Shown one piece after another: positions 11,797 through 30,073 of a stretch of DNA of 64,000 bases; within the stretch, counting starts at the first letter, position 1, and each line of letters begins with the position of its first letter. The stretch comes from Candidatus Eiseniibacteriota bacterium (GTDB taxonomy: Bacteria > Eisenbacteria > RBG-16-71-46 > CAIMUX01 > VGJL01), in NCBI GenBank assembly GCA_963792585.1, contig CAWBWI010000006.1, positions 864,001-928,000 of the forward strand. Direction: 5' to 3'. The translations under genes and the position numbers were made by a program. A model generated the notes under the pieces. It was not told where the DNA came from and did not search any database. It saw only the letters and a list, made by a program, of their open reading frames with translations.

Positions 11797-15401
<3,605 letters not shown>

Positions 15402-15804
15402 GGAGTCCCTCCTAGAGAGCAACGGAACAGAAGGCGTCCGTCCGACCGGCATTCCGTTCGGACGCGCGACGCCACCCGGAGCGCTTCGTGAACTCAGGTC
15501 TGGGGATGGATATGCGGAAGCCCGCGCGCTCGGGCGCGCGTCGACGGCTCAGGTTGGACACGTCGTGCACCCCACACCCCACGTCCCGATGAGCGCCGGA
15601 TCCCTGACCCGGTCGCCGAGACCAGCTGAGCGGCCGCCCAAACTTCAAGGAGGCGGCCGAGGCGGCCCCCCGGCCTTTGATCGACCGGAGCCGGGTCACC
15701 CTTCACTCGTCTCCCAGAGGCCGACGGTAGAACATCCTCAAGTGAGTGGCAACCTCTTCCCCGCGCTTTCCTTTTATCGATGCCAGCGCTGAATAAGACT
15801 AACT

Positions 15805-16061: not shown

Positions 16062-17744
16062 ATGAGAGTGCGTCCCCTCATCGCGGGGTTGTTGATCCTG
16101 GTTGCCGTCGGATTCGCTGGATGCAGCGACGACGACAACGACAACAACCCGACACCACCGGCGTTGACCGCCGAGATCGCCGCGCCTGCAACGACGACGA
16201 CCGGCGCCATCGTCACCTTGATCGCCACGGCGTCGCCGGCCGGTTCGGGTTACACCTACGCTTGGACCGCGAGCGGCGGTATCCTGCGCGCCGCGGGCAA
16301 CGACACGACGCAGTGGGTCGCTCCTGATGACGACGGAACCTACGAGATCTCCGTCGTGATCGGGGACGGCACCAAGTCGGCGACGACGAAGAAGTCGATC
16401 GTCGCATCGAACTATGTCGCTGCGGTCGAACCGCACTACGTCGGCGGTGAGACATGCAAGACCTGCCATAACGCGGTGCACCAGGATTGGGCCGCTACCG
16501 GGCACGCGGGCGCCCTCGCCACGCTGGTCGCCGAGGGTATGGGGGCGAACACGTTCTGTCTCCCATGCCACACCGTTGGATACAACACGGCGACCGCCAA
16601 TGGTGGATTCGACGAGCAGGCGGTGCCGAGACTCGCAAACGTCCAGTGCGAGAACTGCCACGGTCCTGGAAGCGCCCACGCGGGCAATCCAAGTGTTGTG
16701 AAGCCTCCGAAGTCGGTCGAGGCCTCTCTCTGCGGGAGTTGCCACGAGGGCGAACACCACCCGACCTATTCGGAGTGGGACGAGTCGGGTCACGGCTCGA
16801 TCCTCGAGAACCCAGAGATGGTCGGAGAGGCTGCGCGCGCGGCCTGCGCGAAGTGCCACAATGGTGCGGTGGCCAAGGACTACCTCAACGACCCGGTCAA
16901 CTTCGTCCCGCCCACGTCCGCTCCGACGGACACGCTGGACATCACCTGCGTGGTCTGTCATGACGCGCACGGGAATGACAACAAGTCCAACCTTCGCAAT
17001 GCCGTGCTCGACGTCGCTCTCCCTGATGGCGTCCACCCCGAGGCGGGGGCCGGCCGCCTCTGCATCGCCTGTCACAACCAGCGCCGGACGCCCACCGACA
17101 TCGAAGGTCAGGTCAACGACGGTACGAGTCGCCTCGGCCCGCACCACAGCGTCCAGGGTGACATGCTCGCGGGCTCGGGGGCCTACGAAGCGGTCAACCC
17201 CGCGTTCTCCTTCGCGACCAGCAAGCACGTGATGATCCAGGACGGTTGCATCAGCTGCCACAATCATCACATCCCGTTCGCGCCGGGCGTGCCTGCGTAC
17301 ACCGGCCACGAGTTCAAGCCGGTCAAGGAGGCCTGCCAGCCGTGCCACGGCACGCTCGATTCATTCGAGAGCGTCGCGGCAAAGGATGACTACGACGGTG
17401 ACGGGCAGGTCGAGGGTGTCCAACTGGAGGTCAAGGGGCTGATGTTCGCACTCGCCGAGACGATCATCGAGGCGACCCCTGCGGACAGCACCGCGGATCG
17501 GGCTACGCTCCAGGCGGCGTTGCCGGCGAACGAGGACGAGGCGTACGACGGCTTCATCGGCGCTGTCGGCCCCGCGGGCAACTCAACGCGGGACCAGCGC
17601 ATGGCCGGCTACAACCTCGCCTTCGTGGCCTACGATCAGAGCAAGGGCGTGCACAACGCCGTCTACTCGATCCAGCTTCTCCAGCAAAGCGCTCTGGCGC
17701 TGAACACGGGCAAGCTGGGACACGCCAAGATCTTGGTGGAGTAG
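16062..17744 (+). CDS. Nine-heme c-type cytochrome lipoprotein with N-terminal Ig/PKD-like domain
   Basis: Lipobox FAG|C. Nine CxxCH (CKTCH, CLPCH, CENCH, CGSCH, CAKCH, CVVCH, CIACH, CISCH, CQPCH). C-terminal helical region with D.SKGVHN..Y..QLL. AAGGAGG RBS. Confidence 0.9.
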   Translation: MRVRPLIAGLLILVAVGFAGCSDDDNDNNPTPPALTAEIAAPATTTTGAIVTLIATASPAGSGYTYAWTASGGILRAAGNDTTQWVAPDDDGTYEISVVIGDGTKSATTKKSIVASNYVAAVEPHYVGGETCKTCHNAVHQDWAATGHAGALATLVAEGMGANTFCLPCHTVGYNTATANGGFDEQAVPRLANVQCENCHGPGSAHAGNPSVVKPPKSVEASLCGSCHEGEHHPTYSEWDESGHGSILENPEMVGEAARAACAKCHNGAVAKDYLNDPVNFVPPTSAPTDTLDITCVVCHDAHGNDNKSNLRNAVLDVALPDGVHPEAGAGRLCIACHNQRRTPTDIEGQVNDGTSRLGPHHSVQGDMLAGSGAYEAVNPAFSFATSKHVMIQDGCISCHNHHIPFAPGVPAYTGHEFKPVKEACQPCHGTLDSFESVAAKDDYDGDGQVEGVQLEVKGLMFALAETIIEATPADSTADRATLQAALPANEDEAYDGFIGAVGPAGNSTRDQRMAGYNLAFVAYDQSKGVHNAVYSIQLLQQSALALNTGKLGHAKILVE

Positions 17745-17766
17745 CGCCGTCGAGATCGATGACACT

Positions 17767-17800
17767 CGGAGGGGGCGGGGCAACCCGCCCTCTTCTGTTT
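17767..17800 (+). terminator. Intrinsic terminator after the nine-heme cytochrome
   Basis: GGAGGGGGCGGG-GCAA-CCCGCCCTCTTC stem with GNRA loop followed by TGTTT. Confidence 0.6.
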
Positions 17801-17810
17801 CGCCCTCCAC

Positions 17811-17840
17811 TTGACACAAACGGGAACTCCGATGCAGTCT
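17811..17840 (+). promoter_or_regulatory. Putative sigma70 promoter for the tetraheme cytochrome gene
   Basis: TTGACA-N18-CAGTCT. Confidence 0.35.
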
Positions 17841-17928
17841 AGGTGTGCTTTGGTTGGGTCCCGATCGACCGGGCTGCGGGACCCTACGGGTCATCAAGGG
17901 TTGACGGAGTCGTAGGGAGGCACAAGAG

Positions 17929-18477
17929 ATGCGGTTCTGGTCTTATCTGTCTGTGGCCGGGCTGGTTGCGCTTGTCGTGGCCGCCATGGTCGTCCCCAGC
18001 CTGACTTCCGCCGAGGAGGGGAAGGATGCCGTCGCCGCCAAGTATGTCGGCGTCGGCGCGTGCAAGCCCTGTCACATGGGCGAGGCGAAGGGCAAGATCT
18101 ACGAATCATGGATGGGATCGGCCCACGCGAAGGCGTTCGAGAAACTCGGCGCCGAGAATCAGAAGAATGACGCCTGCCTGGGTTGCCACACGACGGGCAA
18201 GGGCAAGACGATCGCCGCCGGCAAGACGGCTACAGATCTCCAGGGCGTTCAGTGCGAGGCCTGCCACGGCGCGGGCAGCGAGTACAAGGCCCTATCGGTG
18301 ATGAAGGACAAGGCAGCTTCGGCGGCCAAGGGGCTCGTCGCTCCGACCGAGAAGGTCTGCGCAAGCTGCCACACCGGCGCACTTCCCAAGGAGTGCTGGG
18401 CGGGCGCGGCGGCTGCTCCGAAGTTCGTGTTCGCGGAGGCCGCGAAGAAGATCGAGCACCACGTCCCCAAGAAGTAG
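17929..18477 (+). CDS. Periplasmic tetraheme cytochrome c (c554-like)
   Basis: Signal peptide; YVG...CKPCH, SAHAKA, CLGCHTT, VQCEACHG.GS.Y, CASCH; Lys-rich. Confidence 0.9.
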   Translation: MRFWSYLSVAGLVALVVAAMVVPSLTSAEEGKDAVAAKYVGVGACKPCHMGEAKGKIYESWMGSAHAKAFEKLGAENQKNDACLGCHTTGKGKTIAAGKTATDLQGVQCEACHGAGSEYKALSVMKDKAASAAKGLVAPTEKVCASCHTGALPKECWAGAAAAPKFVFAEAAKKIEHHVPKK

Positions 18478-18506
18478 TCGATTCACACGGTTTCGAGATC
18501 TCTGGT

Positions 18507-18543
18507 GCGGCGATCCGGTTGAACCGGGTCGCCGCGCTGTTTA
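18507..18543 (+). terminator. Intrinsic terminator
   Basis: GCGGCGATCCGG-TTGAA-CCGGGTCGCCGC stem followed by GCTGTTT. Confidence 0.55.
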
Positions 18544-18865
18544 ACGCGGGCTCTCCTCCCCCCCCTTATTCGGTGTAGCGAATCAAAATCACAAGATAAG
18601 TATTCTGTGGCCCGTTTCATGCCGATGGGAGAAGTATATTTGCGGTCGTGGTTCGGGTCCGTCCGACCCGGGCTTCACGGATCGCAAGGACTGCGCTCGA
18701 CCAGGCACCGGCCGCCCTGATCGCCGCGGAGTTGGGTAAGAGAGGGTGGTGGGTGTGCGGTTACCGTCGACGATCCTATCGCAGTGCTTTACACCCAACC
18801 CCGCAGGACCCAGAATCTCCAACCGGTCCTCGTCATCCTGCGTCCAAACGCACAGGGGGTTCGTG

Positions 18866-19483
18866 ATGAAACGAGCGAAGCTCGCGGTGTGGCCGATCGC
18901 TTTCCTTTTCCTCGCGCCGCTGGCCTGGAGCGGCTGCGCGAAGAACAGCAGCGATCCGGTGATCCTCAATCCAGGTCCGGGGCAACTGGCGGCCAGGGAA
19001 GGTTTCATCGCCGCGGACCAACGGGTCAATGAGCTGCGGGCGGGTGGGCACCCGGTCATCGCCTGCGCGACGTGCCATTCGTACGCCGTCGGCGGTCCCG
19101 TCAATCGGGACTGCTCCGACTGCCACAGCACGAAGGCGGAAAGCCTGAACCATCCCGCGCTGGCGCGGTGCGTCGACTGCCACATGCCAAGGGCGACGAA
19201 GCAGAAGGCTTCGTCGACGATCTATGCCGCGGACGTTCGGACCCATGTGATCCGTATCCGGCCGGAACCGGAGCGGAAGGGGTCGATGTTCGAAGAAGCC
19301 GACGGGCTCGAAATCGTCGATGTGGGCCCGGGTCTCACCCTCGACCTGGCATGCTACGGCTGCCACAAGGACGAGCGCGGCGTCGGCGGCAACTACAGCC
19401 GCAAGACGTTGAAGCAGCTCGCGGACAAGGCGCCCTACATCCACGCGAACGACGCGGCCCGCATGGGCAAGGAGGGCAAATGA
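18866..19483 (+). CDS. Tetraheme c-type cytochrome lipoprotein
   Basis: Lipobox AWSG|C; CATCH, CSDCH, CVDCH(MP), CYGCH. Stop overlaps the porin start (ATGA). Confidence 0.85.
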   Translation: MKRAKLAVWPIAFLFLAPLAWSGCAKNSSDPVILNPGPGQLAAREGFIAADQRVNELRAGGHPVIACATCHSYAVGGPVNRDCSDCHSTKAESLNHPALARCVDCHMPRATKQKASSTIYAADVRTHVIRIRPEPERKGSMFEEADGLEIVDVGPGLTLDLACYGCHKDERGVGGNYSRKTLKQLADKAPYIHANDAARMGKEGK

Positions 19484-20805
19484 GCAGGCTCAGGGGCTGG
19501 CGGGTCGCGGCGATCATCGTCCTCGCCGCCGGATCGCTCCTCGCAACCAGCGCAGGGGCCTGGCGCCTGAACGGATCGAGCAGCACGGCCGCGTACGTCC
19601 AGGAGGTCGCGAAGACGGGCTTCGAGGACACGTTCGAGAACCGCACGCGCCTCTACGAACGGCTCCGCATCGATGTCATGGAGCTGGCAGATCCGAAGCT
19701 CTCCCTCCACACCTATGGGACGCTGAGCAACGATGTCACGAACCAGAGCCTTGGAGACACGAGGACGCGTCTCTACAACGCCTACCTCCAGTACCGTCCG
19801 GCTCCCGCAGGAACGGACGCCCTGCGCTATGACATCCGGTTGGGCCGCCAGTGGGTCCTCTCGGGCGTGGGTGCGGGCACGATCGACGGGCTCATGGTTT
19901 CGACCGATCGTCCGGGATGGGGCGGCCTGACGCTCTTCGGGGGCACCCTGGGAATGGACACGCGGGACCAACTCCGATTCGACGCGCCGAAGGACTCGCG
20001 TCGTTTCGGCGGCGACCTGCGCATCCTACCCCGCGTCTCGGAGGGATACGAACCCGAACTCGGCGTGAGCTTCGCGGCGACGAGCCGCAACGACGTCGAC
20101 GAGAACCAGAAGATCGGCGCGCGGGCCGCCCTTCGCGTCCGTCGGCAGCTGCGGCTATGGACCGAAGTCCGCCACGACCTCCTGCTCGATCGAACCTATG
20201 GGACGGCGGCCGGAGTCGAGTTCCTGAAGCCCGACAAGCAAATGCGCCTGTGGGCGGAGTTCAACCGCAGGACTCCTGCGTTCCCGGCGACCTCATTCTT
20301 CTCGGTCTGGGATACGAAGCCGGTCTCGGACGTCCGGGGCGGCGTCGGCATGGGAGTCGCGGGACCGGTTCGGTTGATCCTCGACTTCACGCGAACCGAC
20401 TTCCGCGCACAGACGAAGTACGTCGACGTGGGGGGCGCACAGGTCAGCCGCTCGAAGGTCGATCGCGCGACCTCCTATAGGGTCGTCCTCGAGCGCAACG
20501 CGGCGCAGATCGGAGTCCGGTTCTCCAGCGGCTTCGGCGGCGACCGGACGGGTCTGGTCGCATCCTTGAACCAGGATATCGGGGAGCGCGTGAACGTGAA
20601 CCTCGATCTCGGCTACGAAACCTACGACTACGGATCCAACGCGTACGAGGACAACACCGCGACGACCGGGATCCTCGCGCTGAGCTACAAGGCGGCCCGG
20701 AACACCCGCATCACCACACAGATCGAGGCCATGAACAACCGAGACCTCAAGCAGGACATCCGCCTGCTCGCCCGCGTCGACCAGCGCTTCCGGCTGGGAC
20801 GCTAG
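19480..20805 (+). CDS. Outer-membrane beta-barrel protein, putative porin of a porin-cytochrome conduit
   Basis: Signal peptide (AGA|W). Many alternating amphipathic beta strands (RLYNAYLQY, IRLGRQW, IDGL), no Cys, C-terminal strand ARVDQRF. Flanked by multiheme cytochrome genes. Confidence 0.8.
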   Translation: MSRLRGWRVAAIIVLAAGSLLATSAGAWRLNGSSSTAAYVQEVAKTGFEDTFENRTRLYERLRIDVMELADPKLSLHTYGTLSNDVTNQSLGDTRTRLYNAYLQYRPAPAGTDALRYDIRLGRQWVLSGVGAGTIDGLMVSTDRPGWGGLTLFGGTLGMDTRDQLRFDAPKDSRRFGGDLRILPRVSEGYEPELGVSFAATSRNDVDENQKIGARAALRVRRQLRLWTEVRHDLLLDRTYGTAAGVEFLKPDKQMRLWAEFNRRTPAFPATSFFSVWDTKPVSDVRGGVGMGVAGPVRLILDFTRTDFRAQTKYVDVGGAQVSRSKVDRATSYRVVLERNAAQIGVRFSSGFGGDRTGLVASLNQDIGERVNVNLDLGYETYDYGSNAYEDNTATTGILALSYKAARNTRITTQIEAMNNRDLKQDIRLLARVDQRFRLGR

Positions 20806-20820
20806 CAAGGAGACCGAACC

Positions 20821-21855
20821 ATGAAGCGAATCGATCATCTGCGGGTGCTCCTGATCTCGCTGGGTGCGGTGACGCTCGCGATGTTCCTGACCGTCAACGG
20901 GCGCGCGGGCTGGACCTTCCCACACGCGAAGCACTCCGAGGCCTCCGGCGTCGCCTGCGCGGACTGTCACACGTCCGCCGCGCAGAGTACGTCGGGCAAG
21001 GACGACCTCCGTCCGAAGACCGACACCTGCGTCAACTGCCATACGCCCGAAGACCTCACGAACTACGGATACGTCGAACCGGGCAAGCGATCGAGCGGTT
21101 TCCCGAAGTTCTCGCACGAGCAACACCTCGCGATCGATGGGACGGACTGCGCCTACTGCCACGGCTCGCTGACCGATCTGAAGCTGGTCGGCACGGGCAA
21201 GGGGCAGATCGGCCATGCCGTCTGCTTCGAGTGCCACGACGGGACGAAGGCCCCGAACGAGTGCGAGGGTTGCCACGCCAACATCGAGAAGGTGCGGCCT
21301 CTCGATCATGCTCCGGACTATCTTCACAGCCACCAGTTCTCGGCCCGCGGTGCGGCGGAGAAGTGCGAGGAATGCCACCGTCAGAGCACGCTGTGCAGCG
21401 ATTGCCACACGGGCGACAACGTCCTCTTCAGCAGCCACGACCGGAACTTCGTATTCACGCACGCGGAAGCGGCGCGCAAGCACGAGAGCGATTGCCTCTC
21501 CTGCCACAACCAGCAGACCTGCAACGACTGTCACATGCAGGAGCGCGTGAAGCCGACGAATCACGGCTCCAACTGGACCTCGGGCACAAACCAGCACGCC
21601 ACCGAGGCCAAGCGTGACATCGGCTACTGCGCAAGCTGCCACGAGCAGGACGACCCGGTCTGCATCGTCTGCCATCGCGACGCGCGCACCGGCAAGGGGA
21701 ACGACACAAGCATCCATCCGAGCGATTTCAACGATTACGACGTCAAGGGGCCGTGGCACGACGACGATTCGTATTTCTGCTACGACTGCCACAGGAAGAG
21801 CCAGGCAACGGACGGGTTCTGCGGCTATTGCCATAGCGCGGATCGCAAGGACTGA
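20821..21855 (+). CDS. Periplasmic 13-heme cytochrome c (c3/c7-like repeats)
   Basis: Signal peptide; 13 CxxCH in 344 aa; F.H..H distal-His motifs; repeating di-heme units H....H...AR....CxxCH....CxxCH. Confidence 0.9.
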   Translation: MKRIDHLRVLLISLGAVTLAMFLTVNGRAGWTFPHAKHSEASGVACADCHTSAAQSTSGKDDLRPKTDTCVNCHTPEDLTNYGYVEPGKRSSGFPKFSHEQHLAIDGTDCAYCHGSLTDLKLVGTGKGQIGHAVCFECHDGTKAPNECEGCHANIEKVRPLDHAPDYLHSHQFSARGAAEKCEECHRQSTLCSDCHTGDNVLFSSHDRNFVFTHAEAARKHESDCLSCHNQQTCNDCHMQERVKPTNHGSNWTSGTNQHATEAKRDIGYCASCHEQDDPVCIVCHRDARTGKGNDTSIHPSDFNDYDVKGPWHDDDSYFCYDCHRKSQATDGFCGYCHSADRKD

Positions 21856-21871
21856 CGGAGGACCGAACCAC

Positions 21872-23305
21872 GTGATCATCGGCGGCGTCCGCGACTTCAT
21901 CCTGAGAACGACCCGGCATCCCCTGGGCTTCGTGGGCCTGAACATCACGACGATCTCGGGCATCCTGCTCGTCGTGCTGCTGGCCGCGCAGTTGTTCGGT
22001 TTCGCGGGCAATCCCTACATAGGGATCGTCACCTTCGGAATCCTGCCGGGGTTGTTCGTTCTCGGACTTCTGGTGATGCCCATCTCTTCGTGGCTCTATC
22101 GGCGGCGGATGGCGAGGGGTGGGACCGACGCCGGTCTCTATCCGATCTACGACCTGAACAAGGTCAACATTCGCAGTCGGCTGATGTTCATCGGCGTGAT
22201 GACGGCGATCAATCTGACGATTGTCGCCGTCCTCGCCTACCGCGGTCTCGAGTTCATGGATTCGGTCAGCTTCTGCGGGCAGACGTGCCACCCGATCATG
22301 AAGCCGGAATTCACCGTCTACCAGACCTCACCCCACTCGAGGGTGCGCTGCGTGGACTGCCACATCGGACCCGGCGCCTCGTGGTTCGTCAAGAGCAAGC
22401 TTTCGGGATCGCGGCAGGTGTTCGTCCAGTTGGCGGGGACCTGGCCGAAGCCGATCAAGACGCCGGTCGACAATTTGCGGCCCTCCCGGGATACGTGCGA
22501 GGAGTGTCACTGGCCGGAGAAGTTCCACGGCGACAAGATGATGGTGAAAACACACTATCAGGAAGATGAAGCGAACACGCCGATCAAGACCGTTCTCCTG
22601 TTGAAGGTCGGGGGTGGGAATCCGGAATCGGGATTCCCGCGGGGCATCCACTCCCATATCATGAACCGCATCTACTACCGGTCGGATGAGCGGAGAGAGC
22701 TGATCCCCTACGTACGCGTCGAACGGGCCGACGGAACCTCCACTGAGTACAAGAAGGCGGGGATGGAGACCCTTCCCGATTCGATCGCTTCGAGACCTCT
22801 GCGCCTGATGGACTGCATCGACTGCCACAATCGCCCCACCCATGTTTATCGAATGCCCGCGCGAGCTCTCGACGAGGCGCTGGCGGCCGGACAGCTCCCG
22901 ACTTCGCTTCCGTTCCTGAAGCGCGAGGCACTGAAGGCGATCACGCAGACCTATCCGGACGCGGCTTCCGCCCGCGAGCAGATCACATCCTCCCTCGCGT
23001 CGTTCTACCGAACCAACTACCCCGACCTCCTCGCGTCGGATGCCGCGGGGATCGAGAAGGCCGTCTCGGGGGTGGTCGGCATCTGGTCGCAATACGTCTA
23101 CCCCGAGCTGAACATCAGCTGGGGAACTTACCCCGATCACATCGGCCACCAGGACTTCGCCGGTTGCTTCCGCTGTCACGACGAGGAGCATGTTTCGAGC
23201 GAGGGGAAGACGATTTCCCAGGACTGCTCGACGTGCCACAACCTCCTGGCGGTCGAAGAGGAGAACCCGGAGGTCCTCAAAACGCTCTTCCCCGAAGGGC
23301 AGTAG
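21872..23305 (+). CDS. imcH: ImcH-like NapC/NirT-family inner-membrane quinol-oxidising cytochrome
   Basis: Three N-terminal TMs, FCGQTCH..M.PE, SPHSRVRCVDCHIGPGA.WFVKSKLSG.RQV, LRP.RDTCEECHWPEKF, MDCIDCHNRPTH, WGTYPDHIGH...GCFRCHD, DCSTCH. Motif order matches Geobacter ImcH as I recall it, with 6 heme motifs (last one absent). Confidence 0.85.
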   Translation: MIIGGVRDFILRTTRHPLGFVGLNITTISGILLVVLLAAQLFGFAGNPYIGIVTFGILPGLFVLGLLVMPISSWLYRRRMARGGTDAGLYPIYDLNKVNIRSRLMFIGVMTAINLTIVAVLAYRGLEFMDSVSFCGQTCHPIMKPEFTVYQTSPHSRVRCVDCHIGPGASWFVKSKLSGSRQVFVQLAGTWPKPIKTPVDNLRPSRDTCEECHWPEKFHGDKMMVKTHYQEDEANTPIKTVLLLKVGGGNPESGFPRGIHSHIMNRIYYRSDERRELIPYVRVERADGTSTEYKKAGMETLPDSIASRPLRLMDCIDCHNRPTHVYRMPARALDEALAAGQLPTSLPFLKREALKAITQTYPDAASAREQITSSLASFYRTNYPDLLASDAAGIEKAVSGVVGIWSQYVYPELNISWGTYPDHIGHQDFAGCFRCHDEEHVSSEGKTISQDCSTCHNLLAVEEENPEVLKTLFPEGQ

Positions 23306-23322
23306 ATCTTACGGAGGCTCTC

Positions 23323-25293
23323 GTGCTCGCTCGCGCGCTCCTCGCCTTCATGGCGCTCCTCGCGATCAGTCCCGCGGCGTCGTTCGCCGTCACCAATGAC
23401 GAGTGCCTCGAATGCCACTCCGATCCCTCCATCCAGAAGGAGGGCGAGGGGGGCAAGACGATCCCCCTCTACGTCCCGGCGACCGAGTTCGGCAGCTCCG
23501 TCCACGCCGCATTCAACTGCGTCGACTGCCACACGGACTACAATCCGGACGGTCACCCCGGCCCGCTCGGCAAGGTCGACTGCGGCACCTGTCACGCCGA
23601 CGCGATGGCGGCCTATGCGACGAGCATCCACGGTCAAGCCGTTGCGAAGGGGATCGCCGACGCCCCGACCTGCTCCGATTGTCACGGGACGCACGGAATC
23701 ACATCGCCGTCGAATCCCGCGTCGAACGCCAATCCGCTTCGAATCGTCGGCACGTGCGCACGCTGCCATGCGAGCCCGGAGATCGTCCGGAAGTATGACA
23801 TGTCGGCGGAAGCGCCCATCGACGCTTATCTCAAGAGCGTTCACGGCCGCGCGCTCATGATCGACGGAAACGCCGACGCTCCGAACTGCAGCACCTGCCA
23901 CCCGGCGCACACGATGCTGCCCGCCCACGACCCCGCGAGCACGGTCGCGCGTGCCAATATCCCCGGGACATGCGGGCAGTGTCACGGCGATATCGTCGCC
24001 ATCTACTCCGAGAGCATCCACGGGGTGGCCGCCGCGCGCGGCGTCACCGACTCGCCGGTATGCACGGACTGCCACGGCGAGCACTCGATCCAGGAGCCGA
24101 CCAATCCGGCGTCGTCGGTATTCCCCGCGAACATCGCGAAAACGACCTGCACGCGCTGCCACAGCTCGCAGATCCTGTCGGGCCGCTACGGGTTCGACGC
24201 GACCCGGATCGAAACCTACAGGGAGACGTATCACGGGCTGGCGAGCAAGAAGGGGGCGCTCAACGTAGCCAACTGCGCCTCGTGTCACGGCGTGCACAAC
24301 ATCTTCCCGAGCGCCGACGCCCGTTCGACGGTCAACAGGGCGAGTCTCCAGAAGACCTGCGGGACCTGCCACCCGAACGCGAGCGTCGAGTTCGCGTCGA
24401 TCCAGGTCCATCCGTCGATCTCCGGACCGGGCTCCCCCGCCCAAACCGTGCAGCGGCCGCGGGACATCGCGAAGTCGATCTACATCATGCTGCTGCTCGT
24501 GGTGATCGGCGGGATGGCTGTGCACAACATCATCATCTGGGTCCATCATGTGATCGAGAAGCGCCGGCGCGAGTTGAGGAAGCCGCGGGTCCGCCGCTTC
24601 GAGCGATTCGAGGCGGTCGAGCACGTGATCCTGTTGGTGAGCTTCTTCACGCTGGTGTTCACCGGGTTCGCGCTGAAGTTCGCCGATTCGAGTTGGGTGA
24701 GGCTCACGGAGCAGATCGGAATGACCGAGGCGGTGCGCGGGATCGTCCACCGCGTGGCGGCCGTCGTCATGATCGGCATCTCGCTGGTCCACCTGGGATT
24801 CCTGCTGCTCACGCGACCGGGCAGGCGGGAGCTGGCCGCCTTGCGCCCGACGATGCGCGATGTGACCGACTTCGTCCACAACATGGCCTACAATCTGCGT
24901 CTTCGGACCGACCGGCCGACCTTCCCCCACTTCGACTACACGGAGAAGGCCGAGTACCTGGCGCTGATCTGGGGCACGATCGTGATGGTCTTCACCGGTT
25001 TCGTCCTCTGGTTTCCGACCTATTTCACGAGGATCTTGCCCGGGTGGATATTCGAGGTCTCGGAGGTCGTTCACTACTACGAAGCGTGGCTGGCCTTCCT
25101 CGCAATCGTCGTCTGGCATTTCTTCTATGTGCTGTTCGGCCCGGAGGCCTCACCGATGAGCGTCACCTGGATGGACGGGATGACGACGGTGGATCACGCG
25201 CTCCACAAGCACGGAGGTCTGCAGCCGCACCAGGAGGTCCAGTATCCGGACGGCGAGGAGCCGCCGGCGAGCGGGAAGCACCCGTCGGCCTAG
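23323..25293 (+). CDS. cbcL: CbcL-like fusion of 11-heme c cytochrome and di-heme cytochrome b (FdnI-type) membrane domain
   Basis: 11 CxxCH with repeated Y..S.HG...P.CxxCH.H units. Then TMs with His ligands (VEHV, IVHR, LVHL, VVHY, VWHF) and FDYTEKAEYLALIWGT, the CbcL architecture. Confidence 0.8.
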   Translation: MLARALLAFMALLAISPAASFAVTNDECLECHSDPSIQKEGEGGKTIPLYVPATEFGSSVHAAFNCVDCHTDYNPDGHPGPLGKVDCGTCHADAMAAYATSIHGQAVAKGIADAPTCSDCHGTHGITSPSNPASNANPLRIVGTCARCHASPEIVRKYDMSAEAPIDAYLKSVHGRALMIDGNADAPNCSTCHPAHTMLPAHDPASTVARANIPGTCGQCHGDIVAIYSESIHGVAAARGVTDSPVCTDCHGEHSIQEPTNPASSVFPANIAKTTCTRCHSSQILSGRYGFDATRIETYRETYHGLASKKGALNVANCASCHGVHNIFPSADARSTVNRASLQKTCGTCHPNASVEFASIQVHPSISGPGSPAQTVQRPRDIAKSIYIMLLLVVIGGMAVHNIIIWVHHVIEKRRRELRKPRVRRFERFEAVEHVILLVSFFTLVFTGFALKFADSSWVRLTEQIGMTEAVRGIVHRVAAVVMIGISLVHLGFLLLTRPGRRELAALRPTMRDVTDFVHNMAYNLRLRTDRPTFPHFDYTEKAEYLALIWGTIVMVFTGFVLWFPTYFTRILPGWIFEVSEVVHYYEAWLAFLAIVVWHFFYVLFGPEASPMSVTWMDGMTTVDHALHKHGGLQPHQEVQYPDGEEPPASGKHPSA

Positions 25294-26569
25294 CGCATTC
25301 CCCCCGCGCCCGCTCGGGCGCCCTCTTCCATGCAGAGGCGGACCGGCGCCTCCCCGTAGATCCCGACCGGGAAGAGGTACGGGACGAGGCCGAGGAGAAA
25401 CTGCCGCATCTTGAGCGCCTGATGACTCGCATAGTGCTCGGTGTGGATCGTTCTGAGGTAGGTCTCGAGGGTGTAGACCTGGAGTTCGACGGGAAAGAAG
25501 TATGGCGGCGAGTCGGGCGCGTGCGGCGGCCGGTAGAGAACGTCCAGCTCGCACTTGAAGACGCGGTACCCGGCGCCGGAGTATGGGTTCAGCTCGCTGC
25601 TAAGGCTGGTTCCCGAGAGCGTGTCGGTGACGTTCTTGATCCGGAACGGCCCTCCGAACAGGTCGACGAGCACCTCCTTGAGGTGCTCGACCTCCAGCAG
25701 ATCCTCGACGATGAACATCGCGCCGATCAGATCCTTGATCTGGCGGGGATCGTTCTCGCCCTTGCGGATCATCTTGCTCACGATCGAGCCGTTGCGGCGG
25801 CGGTGGAGCCCCGACCGGATCTCGGTCGCTGCAGGGCGTAATGCGTACTGCCCCGCTGGTACTGGTACGGGATGATCTCCTTCTTGAACCGGCAGGAATA
25901 GAAGTAGACGTGCAGGCGGATCGGCCTGCCTTGATAGAGCATCTCGATCACTTGCAGGTCGAAAGCTCCAACGCTCCTGCCCTTCGCGGGTCGATCGATT
26001 GATCGAGTACTCCATCGACACACCGTCGGGGCCGATGCCGAAGAAGACGTCGAGGGTGCGGCGGTCGGCAACGTCGGTGAAGAGATGCCTCTCGAGGAGC
26101 GTTTCGAAGAACCGTTTGTGTGCCACCCCGTCCTCGACGTCCCGCGAGTGATCGACGTCGAAGAACAGCTTCGTCATGTAGAGTTTTCGCTGCGCCTCGA
26201 AGCGGATCCGGGGATCGGTGTTCATGAAGATCATCGAGAACAGCTCGAGGATGTCGGTGCACTCGCCCACCTCGGGGATCGGTTGGACGATCCCCCGGAC
26301 GTCGGCGGGGAGCAGATCCGGACGATGTCGCGGATGTATTGCGTCGCCTCGGTGAGGTAGTATCGCGCCGTCTCGAGATTGGCGGCGAGTTCGTGCGTCT
26401 CGCCGGGGGCGTGGAGCATGCGGTTCAACAGATCGTTGTACGGCGCCGTCCCCTGCAGGATGCTGAGGTACTCGCGATAGAGCATGCGAAAGGCCGCCGG
26501 GTCGCGTTCCGAAAGCGCCGGATCGAGGAGAGGATGTGCCGTGTAATCGGGCGGGGGGATCTTTCCCAT
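25290..26569 (-). CDS. RelA/SpoT-synthetase-like nucleotidyltransferase (TIGR04552/TIGR04562-like), split by about 3 frameshifts
   Basis: SIVSKMIRK...IKDLIGAMFIV, NPYSGAGYR, FFPVELQ, ASH..LK.RQ. The N-terminal part (MGKIPPPDY...) and middle part lie in other frames, with shifts near 26310, 25960 and 25840. Overlaps the cbcL stop by 4 nt. Confidence 0.65.
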
Positions 26570-26628
26570 GCCTCCATGCTCCTAGGATCGTGCCGATCCG
26601 GTCCGCTACCTCGACGGTCGAGGATAAC

Positions 26629-27501
26629 ATGGACGCCATGAACACCCAAGACGCACGGCCGGTCTCTCCCGGAGCATTGATGGAGATGCTCTCCGCGGGA
26701 CCTCGAGCCGGTCCCAGGGTGATCGACCTGCGACCGCGCGCCGCATTTGAGGCCGGCCACCTGCCGGGCTCGAGCCGGCTTGGATTCGATGAGATCGAGA
26801 TCGCCTACCTGCGCCCCCCCCGATGGCGTCCGCTCATCGTTGTTGCCGATGATGCGATCCAGGCGGATGATGCGGCCCGCATGCTGCGGGGTCATGGGCA
26901 TCTGGCGCGGGGACTGTCGATCGGGATCAGCCACGTGCCGGGATCCCGTGAAGAGGGGCCCGAACACCGACCCGTCTGGGAGCCGTCTCCGCTCGTGGAG
27001 TGCTGGGTCGATCGAATCCCCGCCGGCGAGGCTTGCGACCTTGCCTGTGGATCGGGACGCGACGCGGTCTACATGGCCATGCGCGGGCACACGGTCACCG
27101 CGATCGACGTCCTTCCCGATGCTCTCGAGCAGGGGGCGCACCTTGCGGAACGCCACGGGGTGAGGGTCCGGTTCGTTTGTGACGATGTCGAGGCTCACAT
27201 GGATGGGTGGACGGGCCCGTGGAACCTGATCAACGTGCAGCGATTCCTTCATCGCGAGATGCTCCGTCCATTGAGGGAGCGGTTGACCGACGGCGGGTTC
27301 CTCCTGTACGAGACCTTCCTCGAGCAGCAGGCGCGAACCGGGAAGAAGCCGCGGAATCTGGCGTTCTTGCTGAGAAGCGGCGAGTTGCTCGAGGCGGCCG
27401 CCGGACTCGATGTTCTGCACTATCGTGAGGGAACCACCGACGCGGGCGACTCCACTGCAGCCCTCGTCGCGCGCAAAGGAGGCGAGCGTGCACCGAGATG
27501 A
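26629..27501 (+). CDS. Rhodanese-like domain fused to a TehB-like class I SAM methyltransferase
   Basis: VIDLRP.AAFEAGHLPGS (rhodanese), then EPSP, DLACGSGRDAVYMA..G..VTAID, FLHR, GGFLLYETF, FLLRSGEL. Confidence 0.8.
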   Translation: MDAMNTQDARPVSPGALMEMLSAGPRAGPRVIDLRPRAAFEAGHLPGSSRLGFDEIEIAYLRPPRWRPLIVVADDAIQADDAARMLRGHGHLARGLSIGISHVPGSREEGPEHRPVWEPSPLVECWVDRIPAGEACDLACGSGRDAVYMAMRGHTVTAIDVLPDALEQGAHLAERHGVRVRFVCDDVEAHMDGWTGPWNLINVQRFLHREMLRPLRERLTDGGFLLYETFLEQQARTGKKPRNLAFLLRSGELLEAAAGLDVLHYREGTTDAGDSTAALVARKGGERAPR

Positions 27502-28156
27502 TGCGCTGCCCACGTTGCCGCTGGCGGTCGATCCCGGGATCGCGACGCGGATTCGGGTCGGCTCGTTCATGCTCGACGGGGTCTCGGCCGGAGACCGGCC
27601 TACCAGTCTGGACGAGGAGTTCGCGCGTCTGGAAACGCGCTACCGGCAACTGTGGAAAGAACCGGTCGACGCTCACGATGCGCTCCATCCCGCACGCAAG
27701 CTGTACCATGCGCTCGGAATCGATCCGTCCAAGACGCGTCCCTCGTCGGAGGCGCTGCTGCGGCGGGTACTCCTCGGTAAGGGCTTGTACCGCGTGAATG
27801 CGGTCGTGGACGCGGCGAATCTCGCCTCGCTCTCCTTGTTGCTGCCGGTCGGCCTCTATGACCTGGACAAGATCTCCCCGCCCGTGACCCTGCGATTCGG
27901 GGCCGAGGAGGAGTCGTACGAGGGAATCCGAAAGGACCAGGTCCACCTGGGGCACCGGCCGACGCTGGTCGATGCGGGGGGTCCGTTCGGCAATCCCACG
28001 TCGGATTCGTTGCGCACGTCGGTGACGGACGCGACGCGGTCGGTCTGGTTCGTTCTCTTCGCTCCCTCGGATCATCCGGAACCGGCTATGCGGGATGAGC
28101 TGCGCAGAGCGCACGATATTCTGAAGCGACACGCTTGCGTCGCGGAAGGAGGGTGA
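27488..28156 (+). CDS. B3/4 (PheRS beta editing-like) stand-alone protein
   Basis: LGIDPSKTRPSSEALLRR...YRVNAVVDAANLASL...PVGLYDLDKI, GPFGNPTSDS.RT. Confidence 0.85.
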   Translation: MHRDDALPTLPLAVDPGIATRIRVGSFMLDGVSAGDRPTSLDEEFARLETRYRQLWKEPVDAHDALHPARKLYHALGIDPSKTRPSSEALLRRVLLGKGLYRVNAVVDAANLASLSLLLPVGLYDLDKISPPVTLRFGAEEESYEGIRKDQVHLGHRPTLVDAGGPFGNPTSDSLRTSVTDATRSVWFVLFAPSDHPEPAMRDELRRAHDILKRHACVAEGG

Positions 28157-28158
28157 GC

Positions 28159-28926
28159 ATGACCGACTCGGGCGATGCCGGTGGGGGGCGTGATCGGGGC
28201 GGTAGGGGCGACTCCGGGGGCAGGAACGATCCGAGCGGTAGGGGCGATCGGGCGATGATCGGAACCCTGGCAATCATCTGCCTGCTGATCGGGAACGTGA
28301 TCCTCGGCTCCTCCTGCGCCACAACGAAGCCGCGGCAGGCCGCCGGCGTGGAGGCGACTTTACGGGGGGAGTTCCCCGGGGCGGTCCTCGCGGTCGATGT
28401 CGAGGCTGGAAGGGTGCGGGTCGTTTCCTCCGCTTGGGATCAGATGGACGGGAAGGCCCAGTACACGTTCAAGAGAACGTGCGCCGAACGGATTGCGAGG
28501 GCCGGCGGGCCCGAGGACACCGTATTCCTCGTCAACGGCGAGGAAGTCGCCGTGTCCCACGGCGGATCGACTTCCGCCGAACCCGCGTTGTCCGGATCCC
28601 GGGCGGAGCCCGGGACCCGTCGGGCGGATGTGGAGCGGGCGGACGGCCGCTCGACTCCGGTAGAGGTCATGCCGGTCCTCCTCTCCCTTCCACCACCAGT
28701 CTATCCGGCGGAAGCCCGGAAGATGGGAACGGAGGGGCTCGTCCTCGTCCGGGCCCTTATCGGCAAGGACGGGCGCGTCGAGGAGGTCCGCATCTTCCAT
28801 GGCGTGACGGGCCTCGATGAGGCGGCCATGGAGAGTGTTCGGCGGGCCCGGTTCGAACCGGCCCTGGAACGGGGCGAACCGGTCCGGGTCTGGGTCCAGG
28901 TCCCGATCAGGTTCACGCTCGACTGA
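28159..28926 (+). CDS. TonB C-terminal domain protein (possible lipoprotein)
   Basis: P.YP.EAR..GTEG.V.V..LIG.DGRV.EV.I...LDEAA...VRR.RFEPA...GEPV.VW...PIRF. Hydrophobic segment ending ILGSS|C. Confidence 0.8.
   Translation: MTDSGDAGGGRDRGGRGDSGGRNDPSGRGDRAMIGTLAIICLLIGNVILGSSCATTKPRQAAGVEATLRGEFPGAVLAVDVEAGRVRVVSSAWDQMDGKAQYTFKRTCAERIARAGGPEDTVFLVNGEEVAVSHGGSTSAEPALSGSRAEPGTRRADVERADGRSTPVEVMPVLLSLPPPVYPAEARKMGTEGLVLVRALIGKDGRVEEVRIFHGVTGLDEAAMESVRRARFEPALERGEPVRVWVQVPIRFTLD
28171..28254 (+). repeat. Degenerate 18-bp tandem repeat encoding xDxGGR units
   Basis: GGCGATGCCGGTGGGGGG / CGTGATCGGGGCGGTAGG / GGCGACTCCGGGGGCAGG / AACGATCCGAGCGGTAGG / GGCGATCGGGCG. Confidence 0.45.
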
Positions 28927-28931
28927 CCGGC

Positions 28932-30059
28932 TCAGTCCAACCGCACCAGCTCGAAGGGTAGACGTCCGGTCGGGACCGGTTGCGCGATTCCTGAGATCAC
29001 GCGGCCGGTCAGCGCATCGAAGATGCGCAGACCCGGCGTCGTATAGGTCCGATCACACACGATCAGGTACCCGCATGCAGTGACCGCGAGGTCCGCGAGA
29101 TCGTAACCGGTGGACGTGTGGATCGGCTCGATCCGCGCCCCCGTTCTCACGTCGAAGGCGACCAGCACGGTGATCGAGGAGAGGTTGGCGATGGTCGCGT
29201 AACCGCGATCGTTCGGTCCGAGCGCGAAGTCGATCAGGTCCCCGCCGAGATCCTCCTCGCGGGTGAGCCAGCCGGTGGAACGGCGCGTCCCGAGATCGAT
29301 TTTCTCCACGCCTCCATCCAGCGCGCCATACGTGCCCACCTCGGGGATCAAGAGGACCGACGAGGTCCCGTCCCAGATCATCGGCGCCGAGGGGTTCAGA
29401 CCCTCCAGCGGGATTGCCTGGACCCCGGGGGTCACAGCATCGACGTCCACGATCGCGTTCGTGCGCGTGTCCAGCACGACCAGATACGAGGGGGCGATCG
29501 GCAGGTAGGTCGCGCCGCCGAAGTCGATTCGATCGACCGTGATGTAGAGATAGGGAGCCTGGTAGAAGAGACGGTCCATGTCGGGAACGCTGTCGGCGTC
29601 GGCGAAGCGACGAAGCGAGATCGTGTCGCGTGGCGCGCCCGTGCGGGGGTCGACCTCGAGGAGCCCGTCGGAGCCGTTCCGACTCACGTAGGCGCGGTCG
29701 GGCGCGATCAGCGCGATGTCGTGCGGATTGGATCCCGCCCCCACGGAGAACTGCCGGATCGTCGCATATCCGTGTGCAGGGTCGATCACTTGTACATTGT
29801 CGGCGCCGGTGCGGTTGATCACATAGACGAGACCGTCATGGACCCGGGCGACGGCATCCGGATGAATCGAAGCAAGGTCCTGTCGCACCGTGCCGGTCGA
29901 GTCCGCGGAGACCTCGGAGAGCCCTCCACTAGCGTAGTCGGTCGTGACAACGACGTATGACCCGCACTCGGGCGGCAGATGGTCGCCCGGCTTCGTCGCA
30001 TCGTCCTCACAGCCGACGACGGCAAGGGCGAGGAACAGGGCAAAGATCGGCTGGCGCAT
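28932..30059 (-). CDS. Beta-propeller (YncE/BtuG-like) lipoprotein, probable cobamide-binding partner
   Basis: Lipobox VVG|C; propeller repeats (VYVINR.GADNVQVID, GSNPHDIA, KAYVS-like RAYVS). Downstream of a B12-regulated TonB-dependent receptor. Confidence 0.75.
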   Translation of the reverse strand: MRQPIFALFLALAVVGCEDDATKPGDHLPPECGSYVVVTTDYASGGLSEVSADSTGTVRQDLASIHPDAVARVHDGLVYVINRTGADNVQVIDPAHGYATIRQFSVGAGSNPHDIALIAPDRAYVSRNGSDGLLEVDPRTGAPRDTISLRRFADADSVPDMDRLFYQAPYLYITVDRIDFGGATYLPIAPSYLVVLDTRTNAIVDVDAVTPGVQAIPLEGLNPSAPMIWDGTSSVLLIPEVGTYGALDGGVEKIDLGTRRSTGWLTREEDLGGDLIDFALGPNDRGYATIANLSSITVLVAFDVRTGARIEPIHTSTGYDLADLAVTACGYLIVCDRTYTTPGLRIFDALTGRVISGIAQPVPTGRLPFELVRLD

Positions 30060-30073
30060 CGGTCGGTCCCCTT

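Follow-up and report, generated by a model that had tools for sequence, protein, structure and literature searches.

A predicted porin-cytochrome pathway for extracellular electron transfer at a single locus of Candidatus Eisenbacteria

Seven co-oriented genes in a 64,000-nucleotide stretch of a Candidatus Eisenbacteria genome (contig CAWBWI010000006.1; the whole stretch is hereafter called the window) probably encode a complete outward porin-cytochrome pathway that leads from the inner-membrane quinol pool to an extracellular acceptor. The genes, labelled g1 to g7, lie on the + strand at 16062-25293 of the window. In the proposed mechanism, the ImcH-type protein g6 and the CbcL-type protein g7 would draw electrons from menaquinol on the periplasmic side of the inner membrane and, by analogy with Geobacter, might be suited to acceptors of different potential. 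The soluble tetrahaem cytochrome g2 would ferry the electrons over the periplasm, and the 13-haem cytochrome g5, seated inside the g4 barrel, would carry them across the outer membrane. The lipoprotein cytochrome g1, flipped to the surface via an acidic N-terminal motif, would receive electrons from g5 and discharge them onto minerals of Fe(III) or Mn(IV), onto organic matter in humic or particulate form, onto electrodes or to partner cells, while a second lipoprotein, g3, would be an optional periplasm-facing adaptor. Geobacter conduits consist of a periplasmic cytochrome of the 12-haem class, an outer-membrane beta protein with 18-21 predicted strands and at least one redox lipoprotein, and the general traits by which such conduits are recognised (multihaem cytochrome in the periplasm, beta protein in the outer membrane, lipoprotein with redox centres) are all found at this locus (PMC6148476). 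A preliminary description of this DNA had already proposed a self-contained quinone-to-surface pathway; the parts, their predicted topology and their linkage support it, with the change that g1, and not g3, is the likely outer partner.

Counted as CxxCH or CX3CH motifs, the haem sites of the locus number 47 (46 CxxCH and one CX3CH) and are distributed over six of the seven genes, the split from g1 to g7 being 9, 4, 4, 0, 13, 6 and 11. Since only 24 open frames with at least three CxxCH exist in the entire 5.4-Mb genome, six of them at the locus, this clustering of cytochromes is far from chance. The genes g1 and g2 are separated by 184 bases and g2 and g3 by 388 bases. From there on the spacing is tight: the end of g3 overlaps the start of g4 by 4 bases, and g5, g6 and g7 follow their predecessors after 15, 16 and 17 bases, respectively. 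Within the genome g4, g5 and g6 are single-copy, and g7 has one distant paralogue on another contig. The motif counts of the preliminary description and its view of the last five genes as tightly coupled agree with this recount and spacing, and the envelope-spanning locations that it assigned to the products accord with the predicted lipoboxes and signal segments, the model of g4 as a barrel and the membrane segments of g6 and g7.

Barrel and multihaem cytochrome of the outer membrane

The gene g4 (19480-20805, +) encodes a protein of 441 residues with one N-terminal hydrophobic signal segment and no haem motif, for which searches of Pfam (at E 0.01) and NCBIfam returned no family match. Its AlphaFold2 model, computed with 22 homologues (mean predicted local distance difference test score (pLDDT) 83.1, predicted template modelling score 0.72), is all-beta behind the signal helix and contains 22 strands of 9-16 residues each, in which hydrophobic residues alternate with polar or charged ones, the pattern of membrane-embedded barrel strands. 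The model was ranked by all-against-all structural alignment against ~48,000 PDB representatives (VIA-align), and the top matches were the 22-strand barrels of TonB-dependent transporters (Z 19.3-17), including 5t3r_D (Z 19.3, 366 residues aligned, root-mean-square deviation (rmsd) 5.0), FyuA (Z 18.6), Cir (Z 17.9) and BtuB (Z 17.7). In these transporters g4 aligned to the barrel part alone, past the plug. Usher pores scored Z 16.6-16.7, and MtrB (6r2q_B) aligned at Z 14.9 over 341 residues with an rmsd of 5.8. In addition, the sequence profile of the g4 family matched LptD barrels weakly (E 1.3e-4). We thus predict from the model, with good confidence, that g4 is an outer-membrane barrel of about 22 strands that has the size of a TonB-dependent transporter barrel but no plug of its own. 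Failure of g4 to fold as a barrel, or a barrel too narrow for a cytochrome, had been named in the preliminary description as grounds for abandoning its proposal; the model, made without a partner, is that of a large outer-membrane barrel and supplies the integral outer-membrane beta-strand component of porin-cytochrome conduits (PMC6148476).

The barrel belongs to a sizeable family. When 1.84 billion representatives were searched with the g4 family profile, 347 clusters matched at E <=0.001, 132 of them at E <=1e-10, with lengths of 400-450 residues in nearly all cases. Among 20 clusters that were looked up, five carried an organism name, from Zixibacteria, Fidelibacterota, Cloacimonadota and Bacteroidota, and all were annotated as 'hypothetical protein'; the nine reference-genome loci with the family were all in Candidatus Eisenbacteria or 'uncultured bacterium' entries. 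The g4 barrel family lacks a name, its named members come solely from phyla of the FCB group, and it appears to be new.

The barrel gene is paired with a gene for a long cytochrome. We surveyed the pairing in 206 Eisenbacteria genomes, taking E <=1e-50 as a strong barrel match and E <=1e-5 as a family match. Family matches were found in 48 of the 206 genomes, concentrated in the window's own family (5/5) and its sister family (12/13), and 24 genomes, the window's included, had a strong match. Directly downstream of the barrel, 23 of the 24 strong loci have a frame with 11-14 CxxCH; the remaining locus is 1.5 kb long and shows 7 CxxCH before its cut end. Six weaker barrel loci had flanking frames of 9-13 haems as well. 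The synteny survey called for in the preliminary description thus finds that the barrel-cytochrome pairing holds across Eisenbacteria. These results bear on whether g4 could be an ordinary diffusion porin or transporter that merely lies among cytochrome genes and forms no physical conduit. The missing family annotation of g4 would fit such a protein, as would the weak match to general porin Pfam families in 2 of 48 diverse, distant members of its family; set against these are the recurrent 11-14-haem neighbour, the tight spacing (from a 4-base overlap to 15 bases), the single copy and the leak that an unfilled, plug-less barrel of 22 strands would presumably cause. An ordinary porin is accordingly very improbable.

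The neighbour in the window, g5 (20821-21855, +; 344 residues), has 13 CxxCH motifs and one N-terminal hydrophobic signal segment. In an alignment of 19 orthologues, 11 of the 13 haem motifs are invariant, as are many further histidines. By profile, the closest solved relative of g5 is 3ov0_A (E 2e-18), the extended dodecahaem cytochrome GSU1996 of Geobacter (PMC10138318), followed by the pentahaem subunits of alternative complex III; MtrA (6r2q_A) was matched at E 4.8e-4 only. Against the DmsE/MtrA model (TIGR03508), g5 scored 16.9 bits where the cut-off is 192.2, and with 13 motifs rather than 10 it falls outside that family. MtrB_PioB (PF11854) had no match in g4 or elsewhere in the genome (84% complete), and MtrB was absent from a g4 profile search of PDB sequences up to E 10. 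As judged by these hidden Markov model and profile searches, neither g4 nor g5 falls in the MtrB or MtrA family. The earlier impression that the porin and its 13-haem partner do not look like MtrAB is accordingly true by sequence, though the barrel fold class is one shared with MtrB. By predicted location, g5, with its signal segment and 13 CxxCH, and g2, with its signal segment and 4 CxxCH, are the periplasmic multihaem cytochromes of the locus (PMC6148476). We predict that g5 is a periplasmic wire inserted into the g4 barrel, and the fixed pairing of the g4 family with a c7-type cytochrome of 11-14 haems looks new.

The lipoproteins g1 and g3

The predicted outer end of the conduit is g1 (16062-17744, +), a 560-residue lipoprotein with lipobox FAGC and 9 CxxCH. 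From N to C terminus it consists of an immunoglobulin-like (Ig-like) domain, a haem domain akin to those of OcwA and cytochrome c554, and a bundle of helices. The closest solved structure by sequence is that of OcwA (6i5b_A; E 7.5e-20 with the single sequence, 1e-21 with the profile), and the match is patchy yet collinear, with the c554-like module at the start and helices at the end. OcwA (TherJR_2595) is a nonahaem terminal reductase on the cell surface of Thermincola potens (PMC6703420); g1 has both the nine haem sites and the similarity to 6I5B that characterise the OcwA type. The AlphaFold2 model of g1 is confident only at its two ends, in the Ig-like sandwich (residues 31-115) and in the bundle of C-terminal helices.

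Full-length orthologues of g1 occur in 13 of the 206 Eisenbacteria genomes, the window's own included, with 46-58% identity over 11 aligned sequences and 9 CxxCH in every aligned orthologue. In all 13 genomes g1 adjoins the barrel gene; in eight of them g1 immediately precedes it on the same strand, in three g2 intervenes, and in two the genes diverge. Moreover, in 12 of 12 aligned copies the lipobox cysteine is followed by three to five aspartate or glutamate residues at positions +2 to +6, read as SDDDN in g1 and, for example, as EEDDD or GDEET in other orthologues. At least three acidic residues after the cysteine were present in only 6 of 164 crudely predicted lipoproteins of the same genome, g1 among them. 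In Bacteroidota, a lipoprotein export signal has been shown by experiment to direct lipoproteins to the surface; its consensus in B. fragilis is SDDDD, and two acidic residues behind a polar or basic one make up the minimal signal (PMC5080379). The start of mature g1 (C-SDDDN) conforms to this signal, while that of g3 (C-AKNSS) does not. Use of the signal in Eisenbacteria may be supposed by analogy, from kinship within the FCB group.

A second acidic lipoprotein lies farther along the window, where a TonB gene (28135-28926, +), a gene for a 385-residue lipoprotein (28932-30089, -) and a TonB-dependent receptor gene (30074-32266, -) are found together. The lipoprotein reads EDDAT after the lipid cysteine and is among the six acidic ones in the genome, and the receptor and lipoprotein together are reminiscent of the Bacteroidota pairs SusC/SusD or BtuB/BtuG. 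In that phylum, the place beside a TonB-dependent receptor is the classic site of a surface-exposed partner lipoprotein. This neighbourhood offers a supporting hint for the role of the motif here.

The second lipoprotein of the locus, g3 (18866-19483, +; 205 residues, 4 CxxCH), has lipobox WSGC followed by AKNSS and no acidic export motif. Linkage was compared by tblastn on the locus stretches of 24 related genomes, all within Eisenbacteria; homologues covering at least half of g3 were found in 2 of these 24 relatives, and one of the two is an 8-haem lipoprotein. In terms of the Geobacter conduits, g1 (9 CxxCH) and g3 (4 CxxCH) are both redox lipoproteins, with membrane faces assigned by prediction (PMC6148476). 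The preliminary description had grouped g3 with the barrel and the 13-haem cytochrome in one putative complex and had left room for both lipoproteins to face inward. A lipoprotein partner is retained, but it is g1, which adjoins the barrel gene in each of the 13 genomes that have it and carries the export-like motif, rather than g3, which is kept in few relatives and lacks the motif; g1 faces outward by prediction from its acidic motif, and g3 may face inward. Judged from these sequence features, g1 is a predicted surface-exposed terminal reductase and g3 a predicted variable, periplasm-facing accessory lipoprotein. An OcwA-like lipoprotein with a Bacteroidota-type export motif as the outer end of a conduit also looks new.

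The inner-membrane end and alternative readings

The gene g6 (21872-23305, GTG start, +) encodes 477 residues with three transmembrane segments by hydropathy (residues 20-38, 51-69 and 104-122), all before the first haem motif. This motif, CGQTCH (CX3CH), lies 13 residues past the third segment and is followed by 5 CxxCH, and Pfam Cytochrom_NNT (NapC/NirT) gave an N-terminal match (E 3.3e-9). The ImcH family was defined by three transmembrane motifs, an adjoining atypical CX3CH and 5-9 CX2CH (Zhong and Shi 2018, PMC6295460). Indeed, g6 has this layout, and so do all 117 full-length proteins among its best 120 homologues. The family is very large, with 7760 of 8000 scored candidates at E <=1e-10; the Atlas clusters nearest to g6 are NapC/NirT-type cytochromes of 468-512 residues from Acidobacteriota and Thermodesulfobacteriota, and the name Geobacter is absent from the best 120 homologues. 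For ImcH of G. sulfurreducens, identities of 31-49% were given for homologues in other phyla (PMC6295460). We predict that g6 is an inner-membrane quinol oxidase of ImcH architecture, the assignment being made by layout.

The product of g7 (23323-25293, GTG start, +; 656 residues) has a signal segment, 11 CxxCH before residue 350 and then a membrane domain of five transmembrane helices, making six hydrophobic segments when the signal is counted; histidines were seen by eye in four of the helices. The membrane domain is of the cytochrome b561 kind (Pfam Ni_hydr_CYTB, E 8.3e-13, residues 425-607), and NCBIfam formate dehydrogenase gamma also matched at E 6.9e-12, under the family cut-off. Proteins of the CbcL/MtrH/MtoC family were defined by an N-terminal periplasmic part with 3-23 CX2CH and a C-terminal b-type domain, with about six transmembrane motifs (PMC6295460), which is the layout of g7. 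It is predicted to be an inner-membrane quinol oxidase of CbcL/MtrH/MtoC architecture, again assigned by layout. The ImcH-like and CbcL-like proteins noticed in the preliminary description are thus recovered by both architecture and Pfam matches. The supplements of the defining survey hold no Eisenbacteria entry (PMC6295460).

Between the two membranes, g2 (17929-18477, +; 182 residues, 4 CxxCH) is predicted to be a soluble periplasmic tetrahaem electron shuttle. It matches Pfam Cytochrome_C554 (E 3.4e-12), has a Sec signal peptide as its one N-terminal hydrophobic segment and no lipobox, and a homologue is present at the locus in 13 of the 24 relatives. A relative that is ~96% identical occurs in bioreactor metagenomes, and in three metatranscriptome libraries each of the seven genes is partly covered by contigs. 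In two of the libraries, g2 is on a separate contig of ~0.5-0.6 kb (window 17878-18458) with adaptor sequence at its ends, at depths of 58 and 134 versus 3-18 for the contigs next to it; a DNA run, by comparison, shows an even depth of ~52. Contig depth does not rank genes and RNA libraries may contain DNA, so these depths are only a hint that there may be a strongly expressed monocistronic g2 message.

The genes for g6, g7 or both were found within the stretch in 15 of the 24 relatives, at varying positions on both sides of the barrel pair and in both orientations. Such variability in order and orientation speaks for linkage by function and against mere inheritance of the gene order. In at least three relatives (L001, L003 and L076), the barrel and its 13-haem cytochrome are followed instead by a 10-haem cytochrome and a rhodanese-domain lipoprotein in place of g6 and g7, and there is no ImcH-like or CbcL-like gene in the stretch. 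In this variant (L001 12652-14797; L003 12858-15003), the lipoprotein has two rhodanese domains and GGDDS after its cysteine. Two further relatives are candidates for the variant: L004 is cut before the rhodanese position, and L009 has weaker, rearranged matches and a CbcL-like gene. The variant recalls ExtH of the Geobacter ExtHIJKL cluster (PMC6148476). Two-part modules of barrel and cytochrome without a surface cytochrome also exist among the relatives. Among Desulfuromonadales, it is the outer lipoprotein that is exchanged, the barrel and the periplasmic cytochrome being retained (PMC6148476), and the Eisenbacteria loci show the same pattern of replacement.

Several points weigh against an outward pathway to extracellular acceptors. 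The direction of electron flow is unreadable from sequence, and proteins of the CbcL/MtoC type occur in Fe(II) oxidisers too (PMC6295460). Neither g6 nor g7 was found within the stretch in 9 of the 24 relatives, 3 of which end at a contig end. The haem domain of g1 (residues 118-450) was modelled at a pLDDT of ~30 (50.3 for the whole protein), so its OcwA-like fold is suggested by patchy sequence similarity alone. Nitrite and hydroxylamine are among the compounds that OcwA reduces (PMC6703420), and g1 too could therefore have soluble substrates. The export signal was tested in Bacteroidota only. The genome is 84% complete, with at least one probable frameshift near the locus. Promoter and terminator scans of the locus gave counts no higher than in shuffles; a promoter-like site before g3 (18788-18816) and a terminator-like hairpin after g1 (17777-17791), both from these scans, fit three transcription units but prove nothing.

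The first of these points opens the way to an inward wire, in which the donor would be Fe(II), a cathode or else a partner cell and the quinone pool would take up the electrons, as in MtoAB-MtoC and PioAB. Homologues of CbcL, MtrH and MtoC occur among Fe(III) reducers and Fe(II) oxidisers alike, with no distinguishing sequence feature, whereas ImcH homologues have so far been reported only in organisms that transfer electrons outward (PMC6295460). The relatives that have the barrel and its cytochrome and lack a surface cytochrome would suit inward transfer, and genes for iron oxidation of the Cyc2 type are on record for metagenome-derived Eisenbacteria genomes (PMC9769843); for g1, on the other hand, the closest solved relative is a terminal reductase, and the pyruvate:ferredoxin oxidoreductase encoded upstream is typical of an anaerobic heterotroph, although its linkage is kept in only 1 of 24 relatives. 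Taken together, inward transfer is quite unlikely.

Also unlikely is that g1 is a reductase of the NrfA, octahaem or OcwA kind for soluble nitrite, hydroxylamine, a sulfur oxyanion, selenite or tellurite, with the barrel and g5 feeding g1 or admitting its substrate rather than serving mineral respiration. Besides the activities of OcwA, reduction of selenite and tellurite by Geobacter depends on the porin-like ExtI (cited in PMC6148476), the variant with a 10-haem cytochrome and a rhodanese lipoprotein is present in at least three relatives, and ~1.2 kb downstream of g7 a gene (26536-27501, +) encodes a rhodanese domain fused to an S-adenosylmethionine-dependent, TehB-like methyltransferase domain, which may indicate a link to selenium, tellurium or sulfur chemistry. 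However, no CxxCK motif was found in g1, and g1 would sit outside the cell if the export motif works as in Bacteroidota. Furthermore, only acceptors unable to enter the cell call for a 13-haem wire that passes through a barrel, and two quinol oxidases, a shuttle and a conduit exceed the needs of a periplasmic reductase. Outward transfer to an extracellular acceptor remains our preferred reading.

The surroundings of the locus were inspected as well. The genome assembly comprises 5.4 Mb in 7 contigs. Just upstream of g1, at 11797-15452 (-), a pyruvate:ferredoxin oxidoreductase gene seems to be split in two frames: a 1012-residue frame (12414-15452) aligns with a relative only to residue 964 and ends in a low-complexity tail, and the C-terminal thiamine pyrophosphate-binding domain is in a separate 208-residue frame (11797-12423). 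The split is probably a frameshift or assembly error, which fits few contigs with 84% completeness. Pyruvate:ferredoxin oxidoreductase was considered as a part of the system and ruled out on its linkage in a single relative. On the other side, convergent with g7, lies a gene for a 451-residue protein with no Pfam match (25290-26645, -), which is kept near the locus in four relatives (L002, L006, L007 and L064; 51-69% identity) and directly adjoins it in three. Other large cytochromes of the genome are encoded at C6 583265-588752, C2 337315-340442 and C3 859100-861872; they comprise 30-haem and 15-haem frames 1.4 kb apart, a run of 7-, 18- and 17-haem frames, and the 16-haem paralogue of g7.

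Relation to known conduits and implications

The locus follows the same three-part logic as OmbB-OmaB-OmcB, ExtABCD, ExtEFG and ExtHIJKL of Geobacter sulfurreducens (PMC6148476). As in Geobacter, the outer lipoprotein is swapped among relatives and a variant with a rhodanese lipoprotein exists; moreover, the closest solved relative of g5 is the c7-type dodecahaem cytochrome of Geobacter, and ImcH and CbcL architectures are both present. In contrast, the ImcH-type and CbcL-type genes are here within the operon-like block of the conduit, while imcH and cbcL of Geobacter reportedly lie at other genome sites than the conduit genes. The outer cytochrome is OcwA-like rather than like OmcB or ExtC/D, and Eisenbacteria are another phylum, of the FCB group.

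With MtrCAB of Shewanella (6R2Q), MtoAB and PioAB, the locus shares a cytochrome wire in a large barrel and a surface lipoprotein cytochrome, as predicted here, and the superposition of the g4 model on MtrB is in keeping with this likeness. The MtrB barrel, however, is said to have 26 strands, whereas about 22 are predicted for g4, which has no MtrB_PioB match. Likewise, g5 has 13 haems versus 10, and the surface partner g1 is not of the MtrC or OmcA type. Linkage of the two ends of a pathway has a precedent, as mtoC and mtrH of the CbcL family can share a cluster with conduit genes (PMC6295460). The likeness of g1 to OcwA lies in the nine CxxCH, the collinear patches of sequence and the surface location, the last predicted for g1. 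OcwA differs in being a protein of a monoderm without a barrel partner, while g1 is a diderm lipoprotein with an added N-terminal Ig-like domain.

The preliminary description had taken the locus to be unusual, but one-locus conduits are less rare than it supposed. Syntenic clusters of porins and multihaem cytochromes have been described in peat Acidobacteriota and Verrucomicrobiota, with cytochromes of 8-13 haems modelled as 'OwcA-like' (the preprint's spelling) and MtrA-like (bioRxiv 10.64898/2026.05.27.727921). Like the Eisenbacteria loci, these clusters belong to uncultured diderms and are conserved yet divergent in sequence. They come from other phyla, and the available part of the preprint describes neither an Eisenbacteria locus nor an acidic export motif nor linkage to ImcH and CbcL.

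The system is thus of a kind already known, built here partly from unnamed protein families, and the gain is one of breadth and annotation, not of a new principle. Candidatus Eisenbacteria has no cultured member, and in the accessible text of publications on Eisenbacteria with cytochromes or extracellular electron transfer, respiration appears only in passing mentions. The conduit locus gives a concrete hypothesis for electron disposal in these common bacteria of soil, sediment and bioreactors. The barrel family is left as 'hypothetical' by annotation pipelines, and FeGenie may miss such barrels. The acidic N-terminal motif on the 9-haem lipoprotein would provide a sequence-level way to separate surface from periplasmic cytochromes in genomes of the FCB group, where this call is otherwise guesswork. 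Tentatively, and with rather more doubt than confidence, we suggest that FCB bacteria own a separate, unnamed lineage of conduits that combines a plug-less 22-strand barrel, a c7-type wire of 12-14 haems and an OcwA-type surface reductase, otherwise known from a Gram-positive bacterium, delivered by a Bacteroidota-style acidic export signal. If this were true, extracellular respiration would be widespread and overlooked in Eisenbacteria, Zixibacteria, Fidelibacterota, Cloacimonadota and some Bacteroidota.

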